In this document: positions 1 through 18,723 of the stretch, piece by piece
Layout: each line of letters begins with the position of its first letter
Position numbering within the stretch: the first letter of the stretch is position 1
Source: Tubiluchus corallicola
Lineage: Eukaryota; Animalia; Priapulida
DNA: 18,723 bases
Assembly: GCA_030141605.1 (NCBI GenBank)
Contig: JAQGDQ010001982.1
Location: forward strand, 1-18,723
Direction: 5' to 3'
Notes under the pieces: model-generated
Seen by the model: the letters and a program-made list of their open reading frames with translations, nothing else
Database searches by the model: none
Told to the model about the DNA's origin: nothing
Program-made: the position numbers and the translations under genes

Positions 1-3000
1 TTTGCGAATTTTGTTTTTTCTCATGAGAATGTGCTACATATTTTTGCGAATTTCGTTTTTTCTCACTAGAATGTGGCAACATTTTTTCGAATTTTGTTTT
101 TTCTCACCAGAATGTTACCACATTTTTGCGAATTTTGGTTTTTTCACTCGGGAATGCTGCCACATTTTGCGAGTTTCAGGTTTTTTCTCATGAGAATGTG
201 GCTACATTTTTGCGAATTTTGTTTTTTTCTCATGATAATGTGGCTACATTTATTTTTGCGAATTTCCTTTTTTCTCTCTAGAATGTCGCCACATTTTTTC
301 GAATTTTGTTTTTTTCTCACCAGAATGTTACCACATTTTTGCGAATTTTGGTTTTTTCTCACGGGAATGCTGCCACATTTTGCGAGTTTCAGGTTTTTTC
401 TCATGAGAATGTGGCTACATTTTTGCGAATTTTGTTTTTTCTCATGATAATGTGGCTACATTTATTTTTGCGAATTTCCTTTTTTCTCTCTAGAATGTCA
501 CCACATTTTTACGGATTTTGTTTTTTTCTCACCAGAATGTTACCACATTTTTGCGAATTTTGGTTTTTTCTCACGGGAATGTTGCCACATTTTGCGAGTT
601 TCAGGTTTTTTTCTCACGAGAATGTGGCAACATTTTTGCGAATTTTGTTTTTTCTCATGATAATGTGGCTACATTTTTGCGAATTTTGGGTTTTTTTCTC
701 ACGAGAATGTGGCTACATTTTTGCGAATTTTGTTTTTTTCTCATGAGAATGTGGCTACATTTATTTTTGCGAATTTTGTTTTTTTCTCACTGGAATGTCA
801 CCACATTTTTGCGAATTTTGGTTTTTTCTCATGAGAGTGTTACCACATTTTTGCGAATTTTCGTTTTTTCTCACGTGAATGTCGCCACATTTTTGCGAGT
901 TTTTTTTCTCACGAGAATGTGGCAACATTTTAATTTTGCGAATTTTGGTTTTTTCTCACGTGAATGTCGCCACATTTTGCGAGTTTCAGGTTTTTTCTCA
1001 CGAGAATGTGGCAAAATTTTAATTTTGCGAATTTTGGTTTTTTCTCAGGAGAATGTCTTGACACATTTTTGCGAGTTTCGAGTTTTTTCTCACATGAATG
1101 TGGCAACATTTTTTTTTGCGAATTTCTGTTTTTTATCATGAGAATGCGGCCACATTTTTGCGAATTTTGGGTTTTTTCTCACGAGAATGTCTTGACACAT
1201 TTCTGCGAGTTTCGTGTTTTTTCTCACAAGAATGTGGCTACATTTTTGCGAATTTTGGTTTTCTTCTCATGATAATGTGGCTACATTTATTTTTGCGAAT
1301 TTCGTTTTTTCTCTCTGGAATGTCACCACATTTTTGCGAATTTTGTTTTTTTCTCACCAGAATGTTACCACATTTTTGCGAATTTTGGTTTTTTCTCACG
1401 TGAATGTCGCCACATTTTGCGAGTTTCAGGTTTTTTCTCACGAGAATGTGGCAAAATTTTAATTTTGCGAATTTTGGTTTTTTCTCAGGAGAATGTCTTG
1501 ACACATTTTTGCGAGTTTCGAGTTTTTTCTCACATGAATGTGGCAACATTTTTTTTTGCGAATTTCTGTTTTTTATCATGAGAATGCGGCCACATTTTTG
1601 CGAATTTTGGGTTTTTTCTCACGAGAATGTCTTGACACATTTCTGCGAGTTTCGTGTTTTTTCTCACAAGAATGTGGCTACATTTTTGCGAATTTTGGTT
1701 TTCTTCTCATGATAATGTGGCTACATTTATTTTTGCGAATTTCGTTTTTTCTCTCTGGAATGTCACCACATTTTTGCGAATTTTGTTTTTTTCTCACCAG
1801 AATGTTACCACATTTTTGCGAATTTTGGTTTTTTCACTCGGGAATGCTGCCACATTTTGCGAGTTTCAGGTTTTTTCTCATGAGAATGTGGCTACATTTT
1901 TGCGAATTTTGTTTTTTCTCATGATAATGTGGCTACATTTATTTTTGCGAATTTCCTTTTTTCTCTCTAGAATGTCACCACATTTTTTCGAATTTTGTTT
2001 TTTTCTCACCAGAATGTTACCACATTTTTGCGAATTTTGGTTTTTTCTCACGGGAATGTTGCCACATTTTGCGAGTTTCAGGTTTTTTTCTCACGAGAAT
2101 GTGGCAACATTTTTTTTGTGAATTTCTGTTTTTTCTCATGAGAATGTGGCCACATTTTTGCGAATTTTGGGATTTCTTCTCACGAGAATGTCTTGACACA
2201 TTTTTACGAATTTTGTTTTTTTCTCACCAGAATGTTACCACATTTTTGCGAGTTTCGAGTTCTTTCTTACGAGAATGTGGCAACATTTTTTTTGTGAATT
2301 TTGGTTTTTTCTCATGAGAATGTGGCCACATTTTTGCGAATTTTGGGTTTTTTCTCACGAGAATGTCTTGACACATTTCTGCGAGTTTCGTGTTTTTTCT
2401 CATGAGAATGTGGCTACATTTATTTTTGCAAATTTCGTTTTTTTCTCTCTGGAATGTCACCACATTTTTGCGAATTTTGGTTTTTTCTCACCAGAATGTT
2501 ACCACATTTTCGCGAATTTTGGTTTTTTCACTCGGGAATGTTGCCACATTTTTGCGAGTTTCGAGTTTTTTCTCACGAGAATGGGCAACATTTTATTTTT
2601 GCGAATTTCTGTTTTTTCTCATGAGAATGTGGCCACATTTTTGCGAATTTTGGGTTTTTTTCTCACGAGAATGTGGCTACATTTTTGCGAATTTTGTTTT
2701 TTTCTCATGAGAATGTCGCCTATTTTTTTGCGAATTTTGGTTTTTTCTCTGAGGAATGTCGCCACATTTTGCGAGTTTCAGGTTTTTTCTCACGAGAATG
2801 TGGCAACATTTTTTTTGTGAATTTTGGTTTTTTCTCACGAGAATGTGGCTACATTTTTGCGAATTTTGGTTTTCTTCTCATGAGAATGTGGCTACATTTA
2901 TTTTTGCGAATTTCGTTTTTTCTCTCTGGAATGTCACCACATTTTTGCGAATTTTGTTTTTTTCTCACCAGAATGTTACCACATTTTTGCGAATTTTGTT

Positions 3001-4292
3001 TTTTTCTCACGGGAATGTCGCCACATTTTGCGAGTTTCAGGTTTTTTCTCACGAGAATGGGCAACATTTTATTTTTGCGAATTTTGGTTTTTTCTCACAA
3101 GAATGTGGCCACATTTTTGCGAGCTTCGAGTTCTTTCTTACGAGAATGTGGCAACATTTTTTTTGTGAATTTTGGTTTTTTCTCATGAGAATGTGGCCAC
3201 ATTTTTGCGAATTTTGGGTTTTTTCTCACGAGAATGTGGCTACATTTTTGCGAATTTTGTTTTTTCTCATGAGAATGTGGCTACATTTATTTTTGCGAAT
3301 TTCGTTTTTTTTCTCTGGAATGTCACCACATTTTTGCGAATTTTTGTTTTTTCACTCGGGAATGTCGCCACATTTTTGCGAGTTTCAGGTTTTTTCTCAC
3401 GAGAATGTGGCAACATTTTATTTTTGCGAATTTCTGGTTTTTTCTCTCGGGAATGTCGCCACATTTTTGCAAGTTTCGAGTTTTTTCTCACGAGAATGGG
3501 CAACATTTTATTTTTGCGAATTTCTGTTTTTTCTCATGAGAATGTGGCCACATTTTTGCGAATTTTGGGTTTTTTTCTCACGAGAATGTGGCTACATTTT
3601 TGCGAATTTTGTTTTTTTCTCATGAGAATGTGGCTACATTTATTTTTGCAAATTTCGTTTTTTTCTCTCTGGAATGTCACCACATTTTTACGAATTTTGG
3701 TTTTTTCTCACCAGAATGTTACCACATTTTTGCGAATTTTGGTTTTTTCTCTCGGGAATGTTGACACATTTTTGCAAGTTTCGAGTTTTTTTCTCACGAG
3801 AATGGGCAACCTTTTATTTTTGCGAATTTCTGTTTTTTCTCACGAGAATGTGGCTACATTTTTGCGAATTTTGGTTTTTTCTCATGAGAATGCTTTATCA
3901 CATTTTTGCGAATTTTGGTTTTTTCTCTCGGGAAGGTCGCCACATTTTTGCGAATTTTGTTTTTTTCTCTCCAGAATGTTACCACATTTTTGCGAATTTT
4001 GTTTTTTTCTCACGGGAATGTCGCCTATTTTTTGCGAATTTTGGTTTTTTCTTTGAGGAATGTCGCCACATTTTGCGAGTTTCAGGCTTTTTCTCACGAG
4101 AATGTGGCAACATTTTTTTTGCGAATTTCTGTTTTTTCTCATGTGAATATGGCCACATTTTTGCGAATTTTGGGTTTTTTCTCACGAGAATGTCTTGAAA
4201 CATTTTTGGGAAGTTCAAGTTTTTTCTCATAAGAATGTTACCACATTTTTGCGAATTTTGGTTTTTTCTCACGGGAATGTCGCCACATTTTT
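1..4292. repeat. Tandem satellite array, ~42-44-bp monomer (approximate consensus TTTTTGCGAATTTTGGTTTTTTCTCAYGAGAATGTGGCYACAT); runs off the left edge of the window
   Basis: Continuous monomer repetition is visible directly. There is a 5-monomer period of ~212 bp (CACCAGAATG at 105, 318, 530) and a near-exact 440-bp, 10-monomer duplication (934-1395 vs 1374-1835; ORFs 964..1272 and 1404..1712 are identical). Confidence 0.97.
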
Positions 4293-4523
4293 CAGATTCA
4301 GTGACCACATATTGTGAAAGTTGTAACTGTATATTTTAGGTGCTGCCGTCTATTGATTAGTCACTTTAACATTTTACTAGTTAAACTCACTCCTAGTACA
4401 ATTGCTCTGTCCAGTGAATATGCATACTCACTGGATCTCCCCTATTTTTACTGTAATGGTATTTGTGAAGCCAAGTTTTGCATAGTTCTCTACCTATATA
4501 TACTGGCTGGATTTTACTTCTAG

Positions 4524-6168: not shown

Positions 6169-9100
6169 CTGAAAAAAATATGAAGGCATTATTTGCAGTA
6201 AAAATTCGGCGGCATCAGTTGTCTAACGCATATGTTGTTATGAATAAATTTAGGAAAACGAATTTCGGTGAATAATTAATTGATTTATCAGATGAATTAG
6301 ATGCAGATGATAAACTCACGCCTCCCTGATTTCGTCAAGGAAATTTATACGGTTGAACAAGAAACTCATCTAGCTGACGCTCGAATTTAATGAGTTAAAA
6401 TTGTCACACGATTGTAGAAAGGACAGGTGTATAATCGAGAAGACGCTATTGTTTAACTAGAATAGATGCAGAGTAAAAGATAATTAGTAGAAGGTCATTA
6501 GCGATTAGTTGTCGCGTGCAAATAAGTTAATGAAGAGAGCCAAGGTCTAGTATCAGTGCTCATCGAACATTAGAAGGAAATCAAAAGTTATGCCGCCCAG
6601 ATGGTGGTAAAAGAAGTCAAAGCGGCGGAATTTAAGAAAGTCATTACTGGTTATAAAATCAGAAAATGAAAGGAACTGTCACTGTCCAGGAGGTAGGATG
6701 TTGCCAGATGCTGCAATACCACGAAGGTCAGCTCTTCGAAATATAAGCTCTAGAAAAATATTACAAAGACACACAACGGGGTGACGTACGTGAGTGTCAC
6801 ATACACCACGAGCGAGAAGGGGAGTCTGACAGTGGTTTGCTACCATACCGTGTGTCCGAGACATCTTCTGCAAGCCAAGAAGAAGCAACGTTTGCCCAGC
6901 GTAGAAGAGGAATCTGCGTACTTAGCATTGACTGAGCACTGGTGCTATGTAGTCTCTATAGGAAACAGGGATCAGGCCAATTGTAGTGGTACATTGGTCA
7001 ATCCACAAGTATCTGATATAGTTGTAGCCGAAACGTTGTATGAATTAAGCACCTTCAGTGCATCATACCTATATAGTAAATCATTAAGTGAGTAGCATCT
7101 TCTCTGGAGCTAGACATTAGTTGTAAACGCCCACCGGCGTATAAGACCGAATCTTGTATTGGAATCAGAGTTGATTAAATTGTAACTGTAAGTTCAATAA
7201 AGTCTATTCACTGTATTAACGTAGACATTGAGTTTGTGAATGATTAAAGTGTTATCGGTAACTGACATTTGCAACACTAAATCCTCGATATGAACTTGAG
7301 GAGATTCGCAGTGTACATAAGAGCTCAATTGCGGGAGCTAAGCTTGTAAACTTGAGGGATAATGATCTGACTCACAACGCAAGGTCAAAGTGAAAGTCGT
7401 GTAGGACAAGATCATTGCCTTAGCGACTTAACTAAAGCCCTCAGAGTCGGGTAATCGAGATCCGATCAATTACCTGTAAGCGATCGATAAGCGAATCTAG
7501 AATCTAAAACATCAATTAATTCAATCATTCAAGATCACTCGATACGGCAAATTATTATACGATCACATTATTGAGTGAGAACTTGATAATGTTTAACATA
7601 TGAAACTTTATTCATAAAGGAGCAAGCGAGTACCATATTCAAACATTTCGACAAATGGCACGCATGAAATACTGACGCATCCCTCTAGGCACGATTTACC
7701 AATAGAAATTCACCACAGAAATATAATGCAATGGAACTACATTTAAACTACGTCTAACAATCAAAAATGATTTAGCTGTTCAATGCAGCGTAAGTCTTAA
7801 TTTTGCTGATGTCATGCTGCAAAATTATGTCTTCCAGTAAAAGTTTTAGTAAAAAAACTAATCATGGTAAGTAGATTCTTGTAGTAGAATGCCAAATTGT
7901 AAAAATGAGATCAAAATGAGTTAATGACAAAAATAAGACAATGTTAGTAGATTAAATAATATGCTACATACTTTACTGTATAAGCTATAAATACGTTGCA
8001 CTAGTAGAAATGGCGGTTTAGCTAAGCTGTTGCTCACGAATATTTGTGTATTCCCGTGGAGAATTCCCATCCCGTTTTGTAATGCAGAATCACAAATTTG
8101 ATCTTGTATTATCCTCGGTTGAACAACATTCCACTCACAAGGTATAACTAGAATTTTCTCTGAAAAATAAAACTAATAACAATCAGTATTTCCTGTAGCA
8201 GCATTACGCAATTAATAGAATTAACAGTTGTTTTATTGGTAAAGAAATCTACTTGCTAAATGGCTTGTTTTTGTTATTCTATAAACATTTTTAAACAATG
8301 CCACGGTTCAGAAGAAAAGGAAGTTCTGTGAAAATATTTCTTTTTTGACGTATTGTAAACCCCAATGGATGTAGCCATTGGTAGCAAAATATGACAGCCA
8401 TGGATATGACGGCAGCACCCCATCCAGGGGTCAGCAATATGCTATTGTTTTTAAAAGCAATCCATATTCGATAACTAATCCATGAGATATTCATAGGATG
8501 CTCTACATTTTTTGTGTTAAAGCAAAATAGAAGGATTTTTGTAAATGATTGTGGCGGAACCGGTAGCAAAAATGATCTTCCAAGGTCCTGTAGTCATCTA
8601 GTCACGCGACTTGACATTGCTTAACTTTACAGTGGGCAAAAAGCTAATCCATCTTGTCACTGATTAAAACAGTAGGTATGGAATGAGTTGAACATGCGTT
8701 TTAGAAGTAAAACATTTTACAGGTAAAAGCAGGTAGTCATGATTTAGCTTTTGTGCTACCGTTTATGTGTTTTTTCCTAATCTATTAAATGATTTACTAA
8801 TGTATTAAATATTAAGCAATATAATGCAGCAAGCTTTTCCACCTGCCCAGGTGGTCTGTCACAATAGCAAAACGTATTAATAATGAAACATGATTCTTAG
8901 AAGAACAAGGAACAAATCAGAGAAACTAATCTATAGCGAATCATCGTCTTTGACCGTTTAACTGTATCCGACGAAAATAAATACAGGCAATTTTTAATGA
9001 CAAAAGAAACAATTTATTTAATTCGATTCTGATGTTGCTAAATATTCGTATTCTGCGTGCAGTAATATAATTTAGCATCATTAGAAGTTCTTTGCAAAAG

Positions 9101-12100
9101 AGAAATGAAAAGTTTCTTTGCATTAATTCCCAGCTGCGTGTTATGGATGCTCGTTACTAATTAGAAAACCTTCATTAATGAGACCACCACTTACCTGGAT
9201 GATCAAATCCATACCGATTTAGAATATATTGATCGTGACCCGGCGTAGGTTTGTTAATGTATGCCTCAAGCAGAGCCAGGATATCATTGGAGAATCTTGT
9301 TTTTCTCAATTTTACCAAGTCCATTAGAAGAAGACCAGAGTTAAAACCTTAAAATACATGCTTCATAATAAGTAATTGTTCCTATTCAATGGTAATTGTA
9401 TCCCGCGATAATTGACTAATCTAATTATAGCCTAGGGTTATTGACAAATTTTAAAAACATTTTTGTAAAACACGCTATCCAACGCATAAAATAGGATGTA
9501 GGTCAGCAAGTGCATCACGATTGGCCGTCGCCATATTCGTCAGTATCATCGCCAACGCCATCTTCGTCAGTGTCTTCACAATCAGTGTTCACAAATTTTC
9601 ACGTTAGTTCCAAACAATTTAATATTAATTATTGTTTTGTTTTCCTCCAAAATTCAACTATTACATAATCTCAGTCTACTTTCTAATTATTAAGTTTGTA
9701 TAATTGCTACAATATTCCACAGTTTTCAACACTTTGTTACAATTGCTTACAAAGTTAATCCCTTGCACAATCATTAATTAATAAGAAGCTGGTACTGCTG
9801 CATCATAACGAAGTTCTTTGCTCCTCTCACATCTTTACCCACTTTAACCGTTTTTCCCAACTGAAAACTGTTTCTGCCACCAAAGGTAGTCAGCCTAAAG
9901 TGGAGATGTCCAAAGCCGGGACCCAGCGACTACTCAACCGAGTGCCAAGTTCGGTCACTATGAGGCATGTGCGTCTCCGTTTAGCCATTTGTCGCTGGAC
10001 TATGGCCGGTTGACACCACCCGGGAGGGGGTAGGAGTACGACTTTGCTATCAGTCTGAGAGGCTGCGAGGTCAGCCTCTGCCAGTAAGAGAGTCACGTTC
10101 AGACTGCAACCTATGTAAGCTTGTCACCCATGGTGCACTTCCCCTTTTTGTTCTCGGTACTTGGATGTTTCCCATGCGTCTCCTAAGCCACTTAGTTGTA
10201 AAATGTGGCTGGTTGGCACCCTCGTAAGGATTAGGAGTACGGCTTGCTCGACAGTCTGTGAGATTGCCCTCTCAACCTCTACTTGGGACGAAATCAAAGC
10301 CAGACTGCAACCTTTTAGCCCGTAAGATGCACTACTGGTGGTGCCCTTCCGTCAATTCCTTAAAGTTTCAGATTCACCCCCGGTCGAGGGTGACGTCCTA
10401 GCCGTTAATGGCACCTCCTGCGGTGTACTTCCCTTTCTGTTCTCGAACCTTGGATATTTCCTCTGCGTCTCCTAAGCCACTTAGTTGTAAAATGTGGCTG
10501 GTTGGCACCCTCGTAAGGATTAGGAGTACGGCTTGCTCAACAGTCTGTGAGATTGCCCTCTCAACCTCCGCTTGGGACGAAATCAAAGCCAGACTGCAAC
10601 CTTTTAAGCCACACGATGCACTACTGGTGGTGCCCTTCCTCCAGTTCCTTTAAGTTTCAGAGTAGCGTCCTACATTTTCCTCCCTGTGTGGGAGTTTACT
10701 GGTTGGGACCTTGTGGAGGTGTAGGCACGATTTTCCGACATTCAAATCTGCTGCTTACTGTATGGTAATTCAGTTCCTCACTGCCTGGCCTGGAGGATTT
10801 CCAACAGCAGTCATTACGTACAAATGATTACAGTTTTGGTGGCTCTTGATCATTTGACAATTTCACCAGATGCAATAACTTTCTACTCAACTGAATTGGG
10901 AATATGGAGTACGGAGTGAACAATAGTACTTATTATGTCAGACTTCCTACCATGATTTTACCTGCCCAGTAATTTATCGTTGATCACAACATGTGATCAA
11001 GTTCTGGTTGTCCTTTACGTAATTATACAACTTTGATGTAAAACTCCCCTCTAATTCGTTGAGCAGTAGCGTCTGAAGTTTTACGCAACGTATTTATTAA
11101 CCTCAGCATATTTCGTATTTAGAGGTCGTTTATGCATGCTTAGTTATTGACACCTTATTTTAGCTACTACTAAAAACACCAGAAAGCATGTGAATATACT
11201 GAACAAGCTGGATGAGTAAAAAAAATAATGAAAAGCTAGCTTATCAGATTAATCTACTGAATAATTCACGATTTAAAATTAAAACGTCATTTCCTCGTCA
11301 TTCCAGTGTGCACCACTGTCCATTTTCAAAACTAACGCTATTCACTACGTCACTCACGTTATTAAAAGTAATTTAAATTTTGCTTAGTTAGCGAAGACGG
11401 AACTCTGTTGTGTTTTGTTTCACTCGGAAGGCTCGTAGAGAAAACCAGAAAACACGTCGTCAAATTAAACTAGTTTATTAAGCGAGAATTATACAACACA
11501 AAAGTATTAAGAAAACGCGAAGTGATTACACTAAACGTGAAAATCTGGAAAACGTTTAAGTGTATCCGAAAATGTAAGTATACAAGGGAATTTGTAAGTG
11601 GCGTCCGTGTGAATCCGTGTGTCCGTCTCAGCGGCCTGCTTCGCCTTATATAGCGCGCCCAAGAAGCTTCCAGAAGTTTTGCCCTAGAAAATTCCACACG
11701 GTAAGACGATTATTCCAACAGAACATTCTACAATGTTTCATGTAATTCTAATAGACGCCAGCGATCTGCACAACAAACTCTAATTAGTTTTCGAATTTTA
11801 CTCAATAAAAATGAAACGATAGTTGAAAAACTTAATTAACGACCGAGGAGCCCAATTACAGTAGTGACGACATTTTCAACAACATCAACATTCGATGAGA
11901 GTCTTGCACGTGTTTCCGAAAGCGAAAATTGAAGTACAGGGCGGGCTATTGTACAACAATCAATGTGATATACAAAAAAAAATCGGCAAATAATATTTGT
12001 AAGTTAAACACTGTGTTCCTCATGAGCTCTCGATCGTGGGCACTACGTCACCACTGAACTTCTGTGAAATAAGAGGTGCAGCCCTTTTTTCGGCAACGCG

Positions 12101-15100
12101 TTTCCGAGATGTAGGCGCTAGAGCTCGTCTGTCTTGTCGTAGAGAACATGGGAAGTCATTACGTTACGGATATTAACTAAAATTATTAAAAGATTTTTTT
12201 ACCGTTAATGCCATAAATTCGAGTATCGGTCGTTCTCTTTTTCACAACTTGATCAAAACCATGTTCCTCGACGTCATCTGCCATGATCACTCCCAGTGCT
12301 TGAGTTCTATTCATTTTATTAAAATAAGACCAGAGTTCTTCCAGTGGTCTCATTATAATCATATCTACGTCTAAGTAAATGACTTTTTCCAGTGTAGAAA
12401 GAATGTCCTGTTAATGAGAAAGTTTCAATTAATAGTTGATAGTAACTTATTAGAAATAGGATTTTATCATTTTCATAAGGTAATCATCGCAAAAACAGTG
12501 AATTTCTGTTTTAATTGAATAGGGTCTGTTACGACTAGTGCAGATGGGGCAGGCCTGACTAGATGTAAGGTAGTCACTGGAGGTTGCTTGGCCGAGCAAT
12601 AAGTTTACATAAAATTTTACTTTAAAGAGGGATCTGCCCACAAACTCCAGATAGTGGCTTCGCAGCAAGGGTAGTCTACGGGGGGCGCTACCACTTCAAG
12701 ATGGTATTGGTTCTTGTGGGATTCTGTATTAGCACTTGTCGGTTAATCTAATTAAATGCAACAGGACAATGATGCAACAATAATAATTATAGTATACTGT
12801 TATCACTTTTAATGACAAAACATTAGGCACGAAAATCAAACCGACGAAATATGTCATTAAAGCACAATACATCAAAACAAAACATTGGCAAAAATATCCG
12901 AAAAAGCTATTGGGCAAAACTGAAAGCAAAATTAAGCGATAACACCAAAAATAAACAGTGTTCATAACTAACATATTATAATGACCTGGTAATATTTCTA
13001 TTGGACATAAGATAAACTAGCCGTAGCAAATGTTTGTCTAAGGGCTTAACTTAACTACCAGCCACCCTGGGGAAATGCTAGCAAGTGAACGGGTTAAGAG
13101 CAGCATTCAGGGCTGTGACGTCACGTGTAAATTAGCAGCATCCAGGAAACATTTCGTTGCTAAACTTCATGCACAATTTCAATGTCTGGCATGACTTCAA
13201 CTCGTGTAGGATCACGTTGAATACAACTAATCCGTCTGTACCCATCGCACGCTGCATAGTAAGGCAAAGAATAAATCAACTTACAGATCGGGGTCCCGTG
13301 AAATAATCTGAAGCTCTAGACACCTCTTGCTGGCCTCCAATAAACAAGAGAACTGTCGTCTATCGCTCAGCAGGTAGTCCTCCAGCCACAAGTACTATCA
13401 CCATAACATCGGGTGCTTGGGACTCCATTAACTGTCCAAAATCCTCACCCATCAACTATGACGGCAGCAATCAAAAGTAGTTAAATGAACAAACACTTTC
13501 ATTCGAAAGTTCAGCAAAACTGCAATTACGAAAAGTCTGACCTATGTAATGTTTTCAGGTCCAATACCAAAGCTCAACTCTAATTCTACCTTGTACACCT
13601 GTACCGTGACGAGTTTTCTGGGTCACCTCTCCGCTTTCACAAGTTGATCAGACGGCTTCATATCGCGCACAAAATTGAATGCTACAAACCAACCCGCAGA
13701 ACTTAAAATTCCTAAATCTTGGGTTTAAAGGGCAACTGAACCATTTTTAATACTTGTTTTCAGGTTTAGTTGATAATATGACAATAGCTTGGTTGTCATA
13801 TTGATTATTATTATTGATAACTTTCTGGGGGAAAGTAAACAGTATGTTACAGGGTCTTTATTGTAAGTCAGTGAATGCGTGAGTGAGTGAATGTGTGGGT
13901 GAACTTATGTGTGTGTGCGCGCGTGCGTGCGTGTGCGTGCGTGCGTGTGAGTGACTGTGTTAGTGTGTGAGAATGAGTGTGTGAGTGAATGAGTAGATGA
14001 TTGACTGAAAGTGTGTGTGAGGGTGAATGTGTGAGTGAGTGAATGTGTAAGTGAGAAAGTGGGTGTGTGAATGAATGAGTGGTGACTGAGTGAAAGTATG
14101 TGTGACTGTGTGTGAGGTGAGTGTGTGTGTGTGTGCGTGCGTGCGCTTGCATATGTGTGTGTAAGTGCGTGAGTGTGTGAACTGATAATAAGTGATCATC
14201 ACTACCATAAAATGGGACATAATCCTCTGGGCTATTTGGTATGTGGAATACACAAAGGCCGCACAAATACGCAGAGACTAAATTATGTAATGAATCCAAT
14301 GCACCTTGAAGAAGTTTTTTCCAGCAATTTTTTGTCATGTTGTTTTAAAACTTCTGTATCTTTGTAAGAATCTGAGGAAGTGCCTAAAGTTTTTCTGTTC
14401 ATACAAAAGCGTGGGTGTTACATTAGAGCGTAAATTTCAAACTATTACCTTATTTCGCTTTTATAATATCGTGATCAAAACTTCGACAATTTTTTTACTT
14501 CGCCCAGTAGAATAACGAAACAATTTACTCACAGGAAGAAAAAGTGGTATACTTTGGCCTGGTTTAAACTTTTTCACATGTTCGCGAGGTACGTCTATCA
14601 TATCAAGTGGATAAAAGATGTAATCCGCCTTCCTATACTTTTGCCATTCCTGTAACTAAAAAAATGATGAAAGAAAGTTATTTTAGTGTTCCAAATTTCA
14701 CATTTGGGATCAAAGGGATTTTTAAGAATTTGGTCCATTTCGCTTGCGTTCTTACTTTGACCAGACTGTACCCAATCATAACACGTAAAAAACATTTATA
14801 ATAAGGACGGCAAAAGCAATAGTTTTAAAAACGTAAAAACTATCGTTTAAAACTCAGCAACTCTCACCATCAACAGTAAATTTCAGCAAATCTCCAATAT
14901 TAAATCTCCATGTCACTGCACACTGATTAAATTATTTGTGTTAATCTCCTTGTTGTTTCCATAAGTTACAGCAGTAGGTAAAACCACATAAATTTCATTG
15001 TATGTATTATGCTACAATGACAATAAATTGTTTGCTTACTTAATGCACGCACCACAATGAGTGAAGTGAAGACAATGCACACATTACAAAGATGTCATAT

Positions 15101-16500
15101 GATGCCCATATCACAATGATTGCACACAATGGACAGATTACTATCAATGAACACAATGCACACATTACAAAGATGTCATACGATGCACATATCACAATGA
15201 CTGCACACAATGGACAGATTACTATCAATGAACACAATGCACACATTACAAAGATGTCATACGATGCACATATCACAATGACTGCACACAATGGACAGAT
15301 TACTATCAATGAACACAATGCACACATTACAAAGATGTCATACGATGCACATATCACAATGACTGCACACAATGGACAGATTACTATCAATGAACACAAT
15401 GCACACATTACAAAGATGTCATACGATGCCCATATCACAATGACTGCACACAATGGACAGATTACTATCAATGAATACAAGGTACGGAACACATTTTTAG
15501 TAATCAGTCTAAACACAGATCACAATGACTGAACACAATGCATGCATCCGAATGACTGAAAACAGTGCATACATCGCAATGGCTGAAAACAGTGCATACA
15601 TCGCAATGACTGAAAACAGTGCATACATCGCAATGGCTGAAAACAGTGCATACATCGCAATGGCTGAAAACAGTGCATACATCGCAATGGCTGAAAACAG
15701 TGCATACATCGCAATGGCTGCAAACAAAGCACACTGCACAAACTGCGGTGATTGCATACGTTGCACATATCACAATGACTGAACATAATGCACACATCAC
15801 AATGACTGCACACTACGCACATATCACAGTGAATGAACATGGTGTACACATCGCAATGACTGAAAACAATATACCCATCACAATGACTGAACACAATGCA
15901 TACATCACAATGGTTGCAAACAAAGCACACGCTGATGACATTCGATGCACACAACACAATGACTGAACACAATGCACACATCATCATGGCTTAACACAAC
16001 TACATGCACAACAAATGACGAGTCATAATCATCAGTATGTAAATAGTTTGCTGTGTATGGGTGAACCATAGGACGTACCATTTGATAGCCCCAGAGGAAA
16101 AACCGAATCTAGATTCATACTAAAAGAGAATAGAGAGTTTCTTTACACCACTATGCCTGTATTAAAAATTAAATCAATGCTTGTCACATTACTCTGCAAA
16201 CTTGTGTCAGTAAATAAGTTCGCTCATTAGCTAACATAATAGCTACCTATTTAATGAACCGAGTACACGTTGCAATGACTCACCTTCATTTTCACAATGT
16301 CTTTTGTTTCAGAACTGCTGACTATGATATGTAGTTGAACAGGCACTGAAGTCACCATTAAGGCACTTTTCAACATAACTAAAGCCTCCTCTGTGTATAT
16401 CTCGCTGCCAGCAATACTAATAGCCAAGTGTAGTACACTTTGAAACTGCTTGTATCCATCGAATGAACTCTGTTTAAAAGAGAGCTGATTAACATAACAG
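6013..16500 (-). CDS. GXYLT1: Glucoside xylosyltransferase-like gene (GXYLT1/2/shams family, GT8); 5'-partial, 6 exons in window; exact orthology uncertain
   Basis: Manual splicing of join(16500..16284,14655..14533,12407..12203,9347..9195,8159..7972,6168..6013) gives one uninterrupted frame with canonical AG/GT sites and intron phases 0,0,1,1,0. Motifs occur in GXYLT order: LHLAI...EEALVMLKSA, FKP...LFLP, IYLDVD (DxD), GFNSGLLLMDL, DQ.ILN, PCEWN, ILHGN. Confidence 0.88.
6402..7408 (+). mobile_element. Probable LTR of an LTR retrotransposon; boundaries uncertain
   Basis: Starts TGTCACACGA. Candidate ends are TGACA (7267) or TCGTGTAGGACA (7408, flanks AAAT/AGAT as an imperfect 4-bp TSD). TATA-like motifs at ~7070 and ~7140 are followed by AATAAA at 7196; no coding capacity recognised. 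Confidence 0.45.
7972..8159 (-). CDS. GXYLT-like exon (EKILVIPCEWN...MGILHGNTQIF...LYSK)
   Basis: Acceptor TTATTTTTCAG, donor GTATGT, 188 nt. Carries the PCxWN and ILHGN motifs of GT8 xylosyltransferases. Confidence 0.92.
9195..9347 (-). CDS. GXYLT-like exon (GFNSGLLLMDLVKLRK...GHDQYILNRYGFDHP)
   Basis: Acceptor TATTTTAAG, donor GTAAGT, 153 nt. Carries the GT8 NSGxxLxxL and DQxxLN motifs. Confidence 0.93.
10330..10371 (-). pseudogene. 18S rRNA-derived fragment (copy B)
   Basis: Minus strand CTGAAACTTTAAGGAATTGACGGAAGGGCACCACCAG matches the conserved eukaryotic SSU sequence CTGAAACTTAAAGGAATTGACGGAAGGGCACCACCAG (recalled, not searched) at 36/37 positions. Not a functional rRNA gene. Confidence 0.85.
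10604..10660 (-). pseudogene. 18S rRNA-derived fragment (copy A)
   Basis: 34/37 match to the same SSU segment, continuing TAGTGCATCGTGTGGCTTAA against 18S GAGTGGAGCCTGCGGCTTAA (15/20). Confidence 0.8.
11406..11775 (-). mobile_element. Solo LTR (370 bp) with 5-bp target-site duplication
   Basis: Perfect 7-bp inverted termini TGTTGTG...CACAACA, flanked by AACTC at 11401-11405 and 11776-11780. Minus-strand TATATAA (11652-11646) is followed by AATAAA (11479-11474). Confidence 0.88.
11646..11728 (-). promoter_or_regulatory. LTR promoter: TATA box with adjacent heat-shock elements
   Basis: A full nGAAnnTTCnnGAAn (AGAAGCTTCCAGAAG, 11662-11676) lies ~10 bp upstream of TATATAA, with further GAAnnTTC at 11687-11694 and 11721-11728. 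Confidence 0.6.
12203..12407 (-). CDS. GXYLT-like exon with DxD motif (DILSTLEKVIYLDVDMIIMRPLEELW...IYGIN)
   Basis: Acceptor TTCTCATTAACAG, donor GTAAAA, 205 nt. The YxDxD...RP...W pattern is typical of GXYLT; the phase 1 end joins the GFNSG exon. Confidence 0.93.
13870..14180. repeat. Compound (GT)n/(GTGA)n/(GTGC)n microsatellite
   Basis: Directly visible low-complexity run; it explains the His/Thr-rich ORFs. Confidence 0.95.
14533..14655 (-). CDS. GXYLT-like exon (LQEWQKYRKADYIFYPL...KKFKPGQSIPLFLP)
   Basis: Acceptor TTTTTTTAG, donor GTGAGT, 123 nt, phase 0/0. Corresponds to the family segment KKLFKPCASQRLFLP. Confidence 0.9.
15050..15995. repeat. 27-bp minisatellite with an 81-bp (3-mer) higher-order block
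   Basis: 81-bp period in ~15072-15478 (CATTACAAAG at 15082, 15163, 15244...). A pure 27-bp period GCATACATCGCAATGGCTGAAAACAGT occupies ~15555-15720, with diverged 27-mers beyond. Confidence 0.95.
16284..16500 (-). CDS. GXYLT-like exon (…VLHLAISIAGSEIYTEEALVMLKSALMVTSVPVQLHIIV…KMK)
   Basis: Lies inside ORF 16251..16580; donor GTGAGT; acceptor TTTGCTTTTGCAG, with an alternative TTTTAAACAG ~30 nt downstream. Resembles the family segment HLAVVACG..EE...MLKSA. Confidence 0.85.
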
Positions 16501-16629: not shown

Positions 16630-18723
16630 TAACAGCAGCAGCAACTACTCTATTTTCTTTTTTTTCATTTTTTTCTCTGCTTGATTCTTTTCCTACTTAT
16701 TTATCTTTTACTTTTCTTATGAGATGACCACATCTCAAACTAACTGCATTTGTCCTGTGTTTAATAAAACCGTGAGGTACAAACAGCGTGAATTGTGTTG
16801 TGACTGCTGCAATAGATGGCTTCATCTGAAATGTACTTACTTAACTGTAAATGATTATGAAGCCTTGGCCGCAGAAACTGATGAATGGTTTTGCCACGTT
16901 TGTCTTCAGAAAATTTTCCCATTTAATCATTTAACTGACGATGACGATTTTAATCATGTTATAAGAAATTCGCTACTTGATTCTATAATTTGTAACGATC
17001 AGTATAATTTAGATCTTTTCCAGACAACACAAAATAGTGAGAACGCAAATTTGCCATTAGAGGATATTGATCCTGATATACATTTTTTCAATCAAAAAGA
17101 TTCTTTTCCAAAAAGTAAATACTACGACAATGAGCAATTTTTGTCTATGCTTTCAAACATAAATTTCAACAACAAATTATCAATGATCCATCTGAATATA
17201 AGAAGTTTATCTGCTAATTATGACCACTTAACTGTACTGCTGCAAATGTTACAAACTCAATTCTCACTAATTGCGTTAACTGAAACATGGTTAAATGAAG
17301 ATACAGAAAAAATGTTTAATTTGCCTGGATATACACTGGTGAATAGAAATAGGAGGAATAAAAAGGGAGGTGGTGTAGGGTTGTTCATTAAATCAGACAT
17401 ACCGTTTGTAGTGAGAAACGACTTAACATCAAGCAACTCTGACCTTGAAAGTATTTTTATCGAAATTCACAAAGTAAAAGGCAAAAACATAGTAGTCGGT
17501 GTGATCTACAGACCACCCGGGCAAAACCCACAAACATTTATTGAACAGTTAACTACAAAACTATCAATAATAAATAAACAGAATAAGCAGTTATTTTTGT
17601 TAGGGGACTACAATTTGAACTTATTAAATCACTCTTCGCATCAAGACACGGCAGAGTTTCTTGAGACTATTATTACTAATTATGTCTTTCCAGTTATTAC
17701 TTGTCCTACTCGAATTACAGCACATAGCTCTACATTAATTGATAATATTCTGACAAATGTTATACAGCATCAGTATAGAGCTGGCAATCTCTTAGTAGAT
17801 GTCACCGATCACTTACCAATTTTCTTAATCATTGACTTAAACATAGCAAAATCTCAAACTAGTAATATCGACAAAGTAATATACAATAACCATGTAAAAA
17901 ATAAATTATTAAGTGATATAGAATCAGTCAACTGGGAAGAATTACATAGTATTTCAGATCCTGAAGCAGCTTATAATCTATTTCTGGATAAATTTAACGA
18001 AGTCTACTTTAAAAATATAAAAACTACTGATGCTTCCAAGAAAACTAATGTTATTAAAAATCCTTGGATAACTCCAGCCATATTAACCAGTATCAGGCGC
18101 AAAAATAAAATGTATAATTCATTAATGAAACAAACCTCAGACGCAGCTGGGACTGACTATAAACAATATCGCAATATTATCCTTCTACCTTTTTCTTTAC
18201 ACCAATCACGGAATCTGATATTATAAGTATGTGCAAGTCATTTGATCGAAATAAGTGAGCTGGCAGGGATAATTTGCGCCCCAAAGTTATTATAGATGTA
18301 ATAGAAAGTATCATTACCCCTTTGACACACATAATTAATAATTCACTTAAAACTGGCACTGTTCCTTCTAAATTAAAACAATTAATTATTATCCCTGATT
18401 CTCTGGACGTAAATAATTATAGACCTATCTCGCTGTTACCGTTTTTCTCAAAAATATTGGAAAAAGTTGTTTACAATAAAAATTTATCGTATTTGGATCA
18501 TCAAAATATAATAAACAATAAGCAGTTTGGTTTTCGGAAAAACAGTTCAACCGAATTGGCTTTGATAAACATAGTAGAGAGTATAATTAAATGCATTGAA
18601 CAAAATAAAGTAGCAGTAAGGATATTTTGTGACCTCTCTAAGGTCTTTGACACAGTTAATCATAAAATACTTCTTGCAAAACTACATCATTACGGTCTTA
18701 GAGGGGTAGCAAACGCATGGATA
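16630..18723 (+). mobile_element. CR1/L2-group LINE ORF2 region (PHD finger, APE endonuclease, reverse transcriptase); inactivated; continues past the window edge
   Basis: ORF 16724..18226 has a PHD finger (CPVF...CDCCNRWLHLKC...WFCHVC) and APE motifs HLNIRSL, LTETWL, GGGVGLFI, YRPP, GDYN, IDNI, TDHLP. A second frame from 18181 gives NYRPISLLP..SKILEK, QFGFR, DLSKVFDTVNH. Confidence 0.95.
16724..18723 (+). pseudogene. Disrupted LINE ORF2 (endonuclease-reverse transcriptase)
   Basis: A frameshifting junction at ~18177 lacks the usual linker, an in-frame TGA sits at 18256-18258, and the usual KKG motif is missing between IIIP and DSLDVNNYRPIS (~18396). Confidence 0.88.

Follow-up and report, generated by a model that had tools for sequence, protein, structure and literature searches.

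HDV-like ribozymes are already known from retroelements, as are tandem hammerhead retrozymes. The ribozymes of R2 elements often use upstream 28S sequence as P1 and cut 9–36 nt before the element, and a duplicated target can turn into an R2 element's own 5' end (PMC3774820). R2 and R1 SIDEs form tandem arrays in 28S in which the units are separated by target duplications (PMC3414825). The 3' UTRs of fish R2 elements have been described as rRNA-like, and the insertion target of hydra R8 is 18S (PMC5035012).

The locus described here is a tandem array of modules with a predicted HDV-like fold on the minus strand of an 18,723-base stretch of DNA (the window). Drosophila R2 SIDEs and R2/R1 hybrid SIDEs resemble it in being short and ORF-less with a 5' HDV-like ribozyme, and in forming tandem arrays with rRNA target sequence between units; they occupy 28S rDNA with 14-bp duplications, whereas the locus here has a 57-nt piece of 18S and units of 201–289 nt, and lies in an intron (PMC3414825). 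No parent element was found for this array in the window. In R2 ribozymes, including that of hydra R8, the 5' strand of P1 matches rRNA, as it does here (PMC3774820, PMC5035012), and R2 ribozymes share with our modules a long J1/2 and mismatches at the top of P1 (PMC3774820). Unlike R2 and R8, the block studied here has no ORF; the comparison with R8 is by description rather than by target sequence. Metazoan non-LTR retrozymes resemble the array in their tandem 150–300-nt units, their borders of self-cleaving ribozymes (putative here), and their occurrence in animal genomes, but these ribozymes are type I hammerheads rather than an HDV-like fold, and the portion of the description available mentions no rRNA pieces (PMC7761336).

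Host gene and surrounding sequence

The window is repeat-rich eukaryotic DNA, evidently from an animal, with a spliced gene on the minus strand. As the first-pass annotation had claimed, the array is intronic: it lies, in sense orientation, within a GT-AG intron (12202–9348, minus strand) whose flanking exons (12407–12203 and 9347–9195, minus strand) are joined in frame. Two exons match Glyco_transf_8 (PF01501; E = 7.5e-4 and 1.1e-4), both below the curated cut-off, and we take this GT8 glycosyltransferase gene to be GXYLT-like. A search with the host protein found no match.

Elsewhere in the window, a LINE on the plus strand (16685–18723), antisense to the host gene, carries PHD, endonuclease, and reverse transcriptase domains and is broken near 18226–18259. 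It is presumably CR1/L2-like, and no connection between it and the ribozyme array was found. Positions 1–4300 are satellite with units of ~42–46 bp, higher-order repeats, and strong AT skew. A host intron holds a 27-bp minisatellite (14986–16000) with a higher-order period of 81 bp, and a more G+C-rich intronic stretch contains a plus-strand open frame of 113 codons (6754–7095) with no Pfam match.

Fold of the modules

Three modules, A (10601–10466), B (10312–10177), and C (10111–9972), share one predicted architecture on the minus strand. Each has a P1 of five pairs, a branched J1/2 (10596–10541 in A) closed by a 7-bp stem, a P2 with a bulged A, then P3, P1.1, P4, and a C that opens J4/2 and is the candidate catalytic residue (C10476, C10187, and C9984, respectively). 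Predicted cuts lie 5' of G10601, G10312, and G10111. Modules A and B are identical at 133 of 136 positions. Re-reading the sequence reproduced the element-by-element assignment previously made for all three, and the coordinates give the same cut-to-cut spacings of 289 and 201 nt. P1 is at least 5 bp long with an R-Y start in A–C (a G-C start and five Watson-Crick pairs), and two further pairs are possible past the J1/2 domain (10541–10540 and 10050–10049).

A strict descriptor of our own design, tuned after the modules had been seen, specified a P1 of 5 bp or more with G as its first base, a P2 of at least 7 Watson-Crick pairs with one bulge, P3, both P1.1 pairs, a P4 of at least 4 bp, and a C opening J4/2. 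Searched against both strands of the whole window, it returned exactly A, B, and C, and it had no match in 300 dinucleotide shuffles of 9851–10810. A loose version with G-U pairs freely allowed returned 33 matches and was unspecific. Fold z-scores on the minus strand were −1.2 (A), −1.8 (B), and −2.2 (C), compared with −0.4 (A) and −0.1 (C) on the plus strand. The modeled fold of A–C is possible and beyond chance.

The first-pass annotation had counted four such modules, which is one too many. The nested double pseudoknot order P1, P2, P3, P1.1, P4 fits A, B, and C and fails in D, which escapes even a relaxed descriptor. The core of D (10729–10666, minus strand) is a decayed HDV-like P2-P3-L3-P1'-P4-P2' arrangement that keeps P2, P3, and a P4-like stem. 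Its position 1 is a U opposite C, its L3 has an A in place of the conserved G, and, as previously noted, it lacks the J4/2 C. The P1 arm and J1/2 earlier assigned to it (10806–10730, minus strand) pair one nucleotide out of register in P1, and part of that 5' arm (10769–10806) may be flanking DNA outside the block described below. A covariance model of A–C did not detect D and found no further copies in the parts of the window searched. From its sequence, D looks like a dead, decayed core. A 22-nt stretch at 10906–10927 is 77% like the J1/2-P2 junction of module A; a module at that position is unsupported by the covariance model.

Differences between A and C fall in 5 of 54 paired columns and 34 of 58 unpaired ones, a contrast that is inflated because these very sequences served to define which columns are paired; all five paired changes keep pairing. 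Compensatory change had been put forward as evidence for the stems. Two double-sided changes do keep their pairs, but 48 of 500 shuffles score as high and the comparison is effectively between two sequences, so that covariation is not significant alone. Between A and B, 3 of 136 module positions differ; of the neighboring flank positions tested, 12 of 52 do (P = 1.6e-5). Gene conversion could account for the likeness of the two modules.

Agreement with the HDV-like consensus

Like HDV-like ribozymes (RF01787, PMC4870747), A–C have a nested double pseudoknot, an ACC/GGU-type P3, a purine after P1', and a C opening J4/2. They depart from the consensus in having C for the first U of L3, a purine at the end of L3, and a branched domain after five P1 pairs, and A and B also combine a short J4/2 with a J2/3 base. 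The published descriptor gives L3 as TYYHCG(N)Y, with a length of 7–8 nt, and J4/2 as CNRA(N), placed immediately ahead of P2', with P3 adjoining P2 (PMC4870747). An overlong L3 had been reported for all three modules; this is correct for C (11 nt) but not for A and B, where L3 is 8 nt and inside the published range. A and B keep the YYHCG of L3 but have C first and G last, and the L3 of C, like that of D, also lacks the conserved G. J4/2 reads CUU(A) in A and B, with a J2/3 of 1–2 nt between P2 and P3, and CUAA plus two more bases in C. In the minimum-energy nested fold of A and B, J4/2 and P1.1 are buried in extended P2 and P4 helices, possibly an inactive trap.

Comparison with Rfam, a check proposed earlier, gave no ribozyme match that reached the gathering score. 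For C, drz-agam-1 (RF01787) was the sole match and scored 13.2 bits (E = 2.8), where 37 bits are required; A and D had no ribozyme match and wider scans of the window gave none either. The ribozyme drz-agam-1 is linked to RTE. No hammerhead family match appeared in the Rfam scans of the window. A snoRNA reading was rejected, with SNORD10 reaching only 14.8 of 37 bits. Some of the departures have active counterparts: fungal HDV variants tolerate an extra nucleotide between P2 and P3, as in A and B, although in these variants, unlike the modules here, P4 usually carries a loop E and the cut site a C-G pair (PMC5640933), and active variants with a 4-bp P1 are known (PMC3774820). The window copies look like HDV ribozymes but are only candidate members of the class, and A–C may self-cleave 5' of their first G.

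rRNA-derived pieces between the modules

A 57-nt piece, S1 (10660–10604, minus strand), corresponds to E. coli 16S ~904–959 and is followed by AA and then by module A. Its alignment to E. coli 16S 907–959 scored above all 500 shuffles (0 of 500 as high); 12 alignments were tried, and three others had P values of about 0.02. The references were E. coli 16S and published 18S primers (primer tables of PMC4511640 and PMC10376359); a primer scan of viral contigs for an 18S reference gave no match. Compared by eye, S1 agrees with primer I- at 18 of 21 positions, with the 3' end of a2.0 at 7 of 7, and with the first seven bases of 960F. A second 57-nt piece, S3 (10371–10315, minus strand), precedes module B and agrees with I- at 20 of 21 positions by eye; it is part of a 231-nt direct repeat (D13, 92% identical) shared with S1. 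The similarity indicates that S1 and S3 derive from 18S rRNA.

The remaining spacers are less clear. The spacer after A (10465–10394, minus strand) contains S2 (~10432–10398), a shorter and more diverged rRNA-like motif whose alignment to S1 is weak (score 16) and not significant alone; a G+C-rich 8-bp hairpin (10393–10374, minus strand) separates the A unit from S3. The spacer after B (10176–10112, minus strand) contains S4, a shortened rRNA-like motif that has a longer version before C in other family copies, with loose ends at 10130, 10131, and 10146. Neither S2 nor S4 aligned significantly to the matching 16S region, and, with the fuller motif of the other copies, they give weaker evidence of rRNA origin.

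The first seven bases of A, B, and C, GGTTGCA, occur in 18S directly upstream of the S1 piece (primer a2.0). The start of C agrees with a2.0 at 14 of 17 positions with gaps, by eye. The 7-nt match is short and was noticed after the fact, and a sea-urchin HDV-like ribozyme also starts GGGTTGC (PMC4870747). A junction sequence in footnote 2 of the Fig. 5 legend of PMC3774820 is similar to the part of the 18S primer that corresponds to the start of the modules. The legend names no species; should the junction come from hydra, the site used by R8 may be the same one. A group I or lariat-capping intron at 18S site 956 was considered because S1 ends near that site, and was rejected: it has no Rfam match, and the CAGTCTG/CAGACTG order in the modules is, as we take it, reversed relative to such introns.

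Other copies and probable allelic state

Family copies were sought among contigs from three DNA runs (X1–X3) of one sample, possibly the window's source. The comparison covered 9700–10329, with module A, D, and the 57-nt rRNA pieces outside it. Matching contigs numbered 54 (X1), 32 (X2), and 4 (X3), many at 80%–95% identity, and summed X1 depth reached 5300, compared with 190–200 for the locus contigs, summed depth not being equivalent to copy number. The modules are a multi-copy family in this animal.

Some other copies have a predicted active site nearer the canonical one than those in the window. Another C copy (depth 443) has a complete P2 and lacks the 3 extra nt that give the window's C its 11-nt L3; its L3 (C21 C22 U23 C24 G25) keeps YYHCG, and its J4/2 fits CNRA(N). 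In the window the first P1.1 pair (10210/10226) is U-A; X1 contigs have U.G, with C-G in one of them: among the matches listed, all six X1 contigs over 10210 read G, one of them also with C at 10226, and no X2 or X3 contig has G at 10210. Other copies are more degenerate, with 24 differences in one X2 contig (record 11). An X3 contig (record 20) has a different, longer J1/2 from 10262 upstream of the same B core, so J1/2 appears to be exchangeable.

Downstream of C lies a structured 3' tail (9971–9851, minus strand; fold z −1.27, not significant) whose last five bases, up to 9851, are A. The match of other copies ends at this point; among the matches listed, at least three contigs in X1 and at least three in X2 have loose ends there. 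The tail and modules had no match elsewhere in the window, where no partner element was seen, and no family copy inserted in 18S was seen. The whole inserted or allele-specific block (10768–9842, minus strand; ~927 bp) has no ORF of its own, and only short open frames of 80–84 codons overlap it.

At 9841 an X2 contig (record 10) parts from the window sequence, and its loose letters match 10769–10798 at 25 of 30 positions by eye. The match of an X1 contig (depth 187) also ends there, and the window-type contig has a depth of 200. Because one contig joins across ~927 bp, the block is probably a presence/absence polymorphism with two alleles, although the joined contig could also represent an allele with a deletion or a paralogue of low copy number. 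Insertion and deletion give the same pattern. The flank at 9700–9841 is highly polymorphic, and an additional allele or paralogue in X2 and X3 has 7 nt inserted at 9788 and departs from the window sequence after 9828.

Searches in other data sets were negative. The A–C core had no match in a scan of metagenomes and one, judged chance, in viral contigs. A further viral scan gave 49 loci, 8 of which could form P3 and none the full fold; all four loci from a further metagenome scan lacked P1, and a phage search gave no match. No homologue was found outside this organism in the metagenome, viral, and phage scans. The open-access literature searched, which lacked several key papers, contained no 18S-spaced HDV-like arrays.

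Origin of the array

With a little better than even confidence, we read A–C as a tandem copy of a short, non-autonomous retroelement with an HDV-like ribozyme, whose partner is probably targeted to 18S rDNA. Three features absent from the first-pass annotation, namely the 18S pieces, the presence of many family copies, and the probable polymorphism, favor a mobile element over an intronic device of the host. Each ribozyme would cut 5' of its own first G, excising the element from longer transcripts. Its 5' strand GGTTGCA would be the 18S stretch just upstream of S1, much as R2 uses upstream 28S, so that a unit, cut to cut, would read upstream target, element, downstream target; this would place the ancestral insertion site between about positions 900 and 904. 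Head-to-tail units may have arisen by template jumping or from circular templates, with reinsertion by a partner retrotransposon probably aimed at 18S rDNA. A 5'-truncated array ending in A5 would then have landed off target in this intron. The window copies would be partly decayed, with other copies keeping a better active site.

The 18S piece could instead be a template-switch passenger in a ribozyme-headed, SINE-like family mobilized by a non-specific LINE such as RTE, with no rDNA targeting. We regard this as the less likely but still credible account: drz-agam-1 is the Rfam match on C and RTE elements with HDV-like ribozymes are described (PMC6765202), R2 template jumps onto cellular RNAs have been reported (PMC3414825), and the copy sits in an ordinary intron. 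Passive capture does not, however, predict module starts that match the adjacent 18S stretch, and it must accommodate four rRNA-like motifs of different divergences, one of them also in other copies. It is improbable that the modules are structured, non-catalytic RNA or another class of pseudoknot, kept for binding a retroelement partner protein. Such a role would fit the departures of every window copy from the L3 and J4/2 consensus, the existence of a competing nested fold, and an Rfam score far under the gathering threshold; the order, lengths, and C opening J4/2 nevertheless fit the HDV descriptor, other copies are nearer the consensus, and variants with a P2-P3 base or a 4-bp P1 are active. 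Recruitment by the host, as an intronic ribozyme array tuning the splicing or level of the glycosyltransferase mRNA in the manner proposed for CPEB3, is very unlikely. The sense orientation in the intron and the constraint on the stems agree with it, but the array is probably absent from another allele, is multi-copy elsewhere, and has local copies that are worse than their relatives.

A bolder form of the retroelement reading, which we hold to be rather unlikely, is an "HDV retrozyme" without an ORF that targets 18S rDNA and whose repeat unit circularly permutes the target itself; it would imply an unreported 18S-site retrotransposon in this animal. If true, the ribozyme would start with upstream 18S sequence and the unit end with downstream 18S sequence, and the element would be released as RNAs of 201–289 nt and copied head to tail, and could escape from rDNA into introns. 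The A and B variant bears on the minimum length of J4/2. Should the targeting model be right, the family would be a sign of another retrotransposon specific to 18S, of interest for gene insertion targeted to rDNA, and its copies would be natural snapshots of target sequence becoming the 5' strand of a ribozyme.
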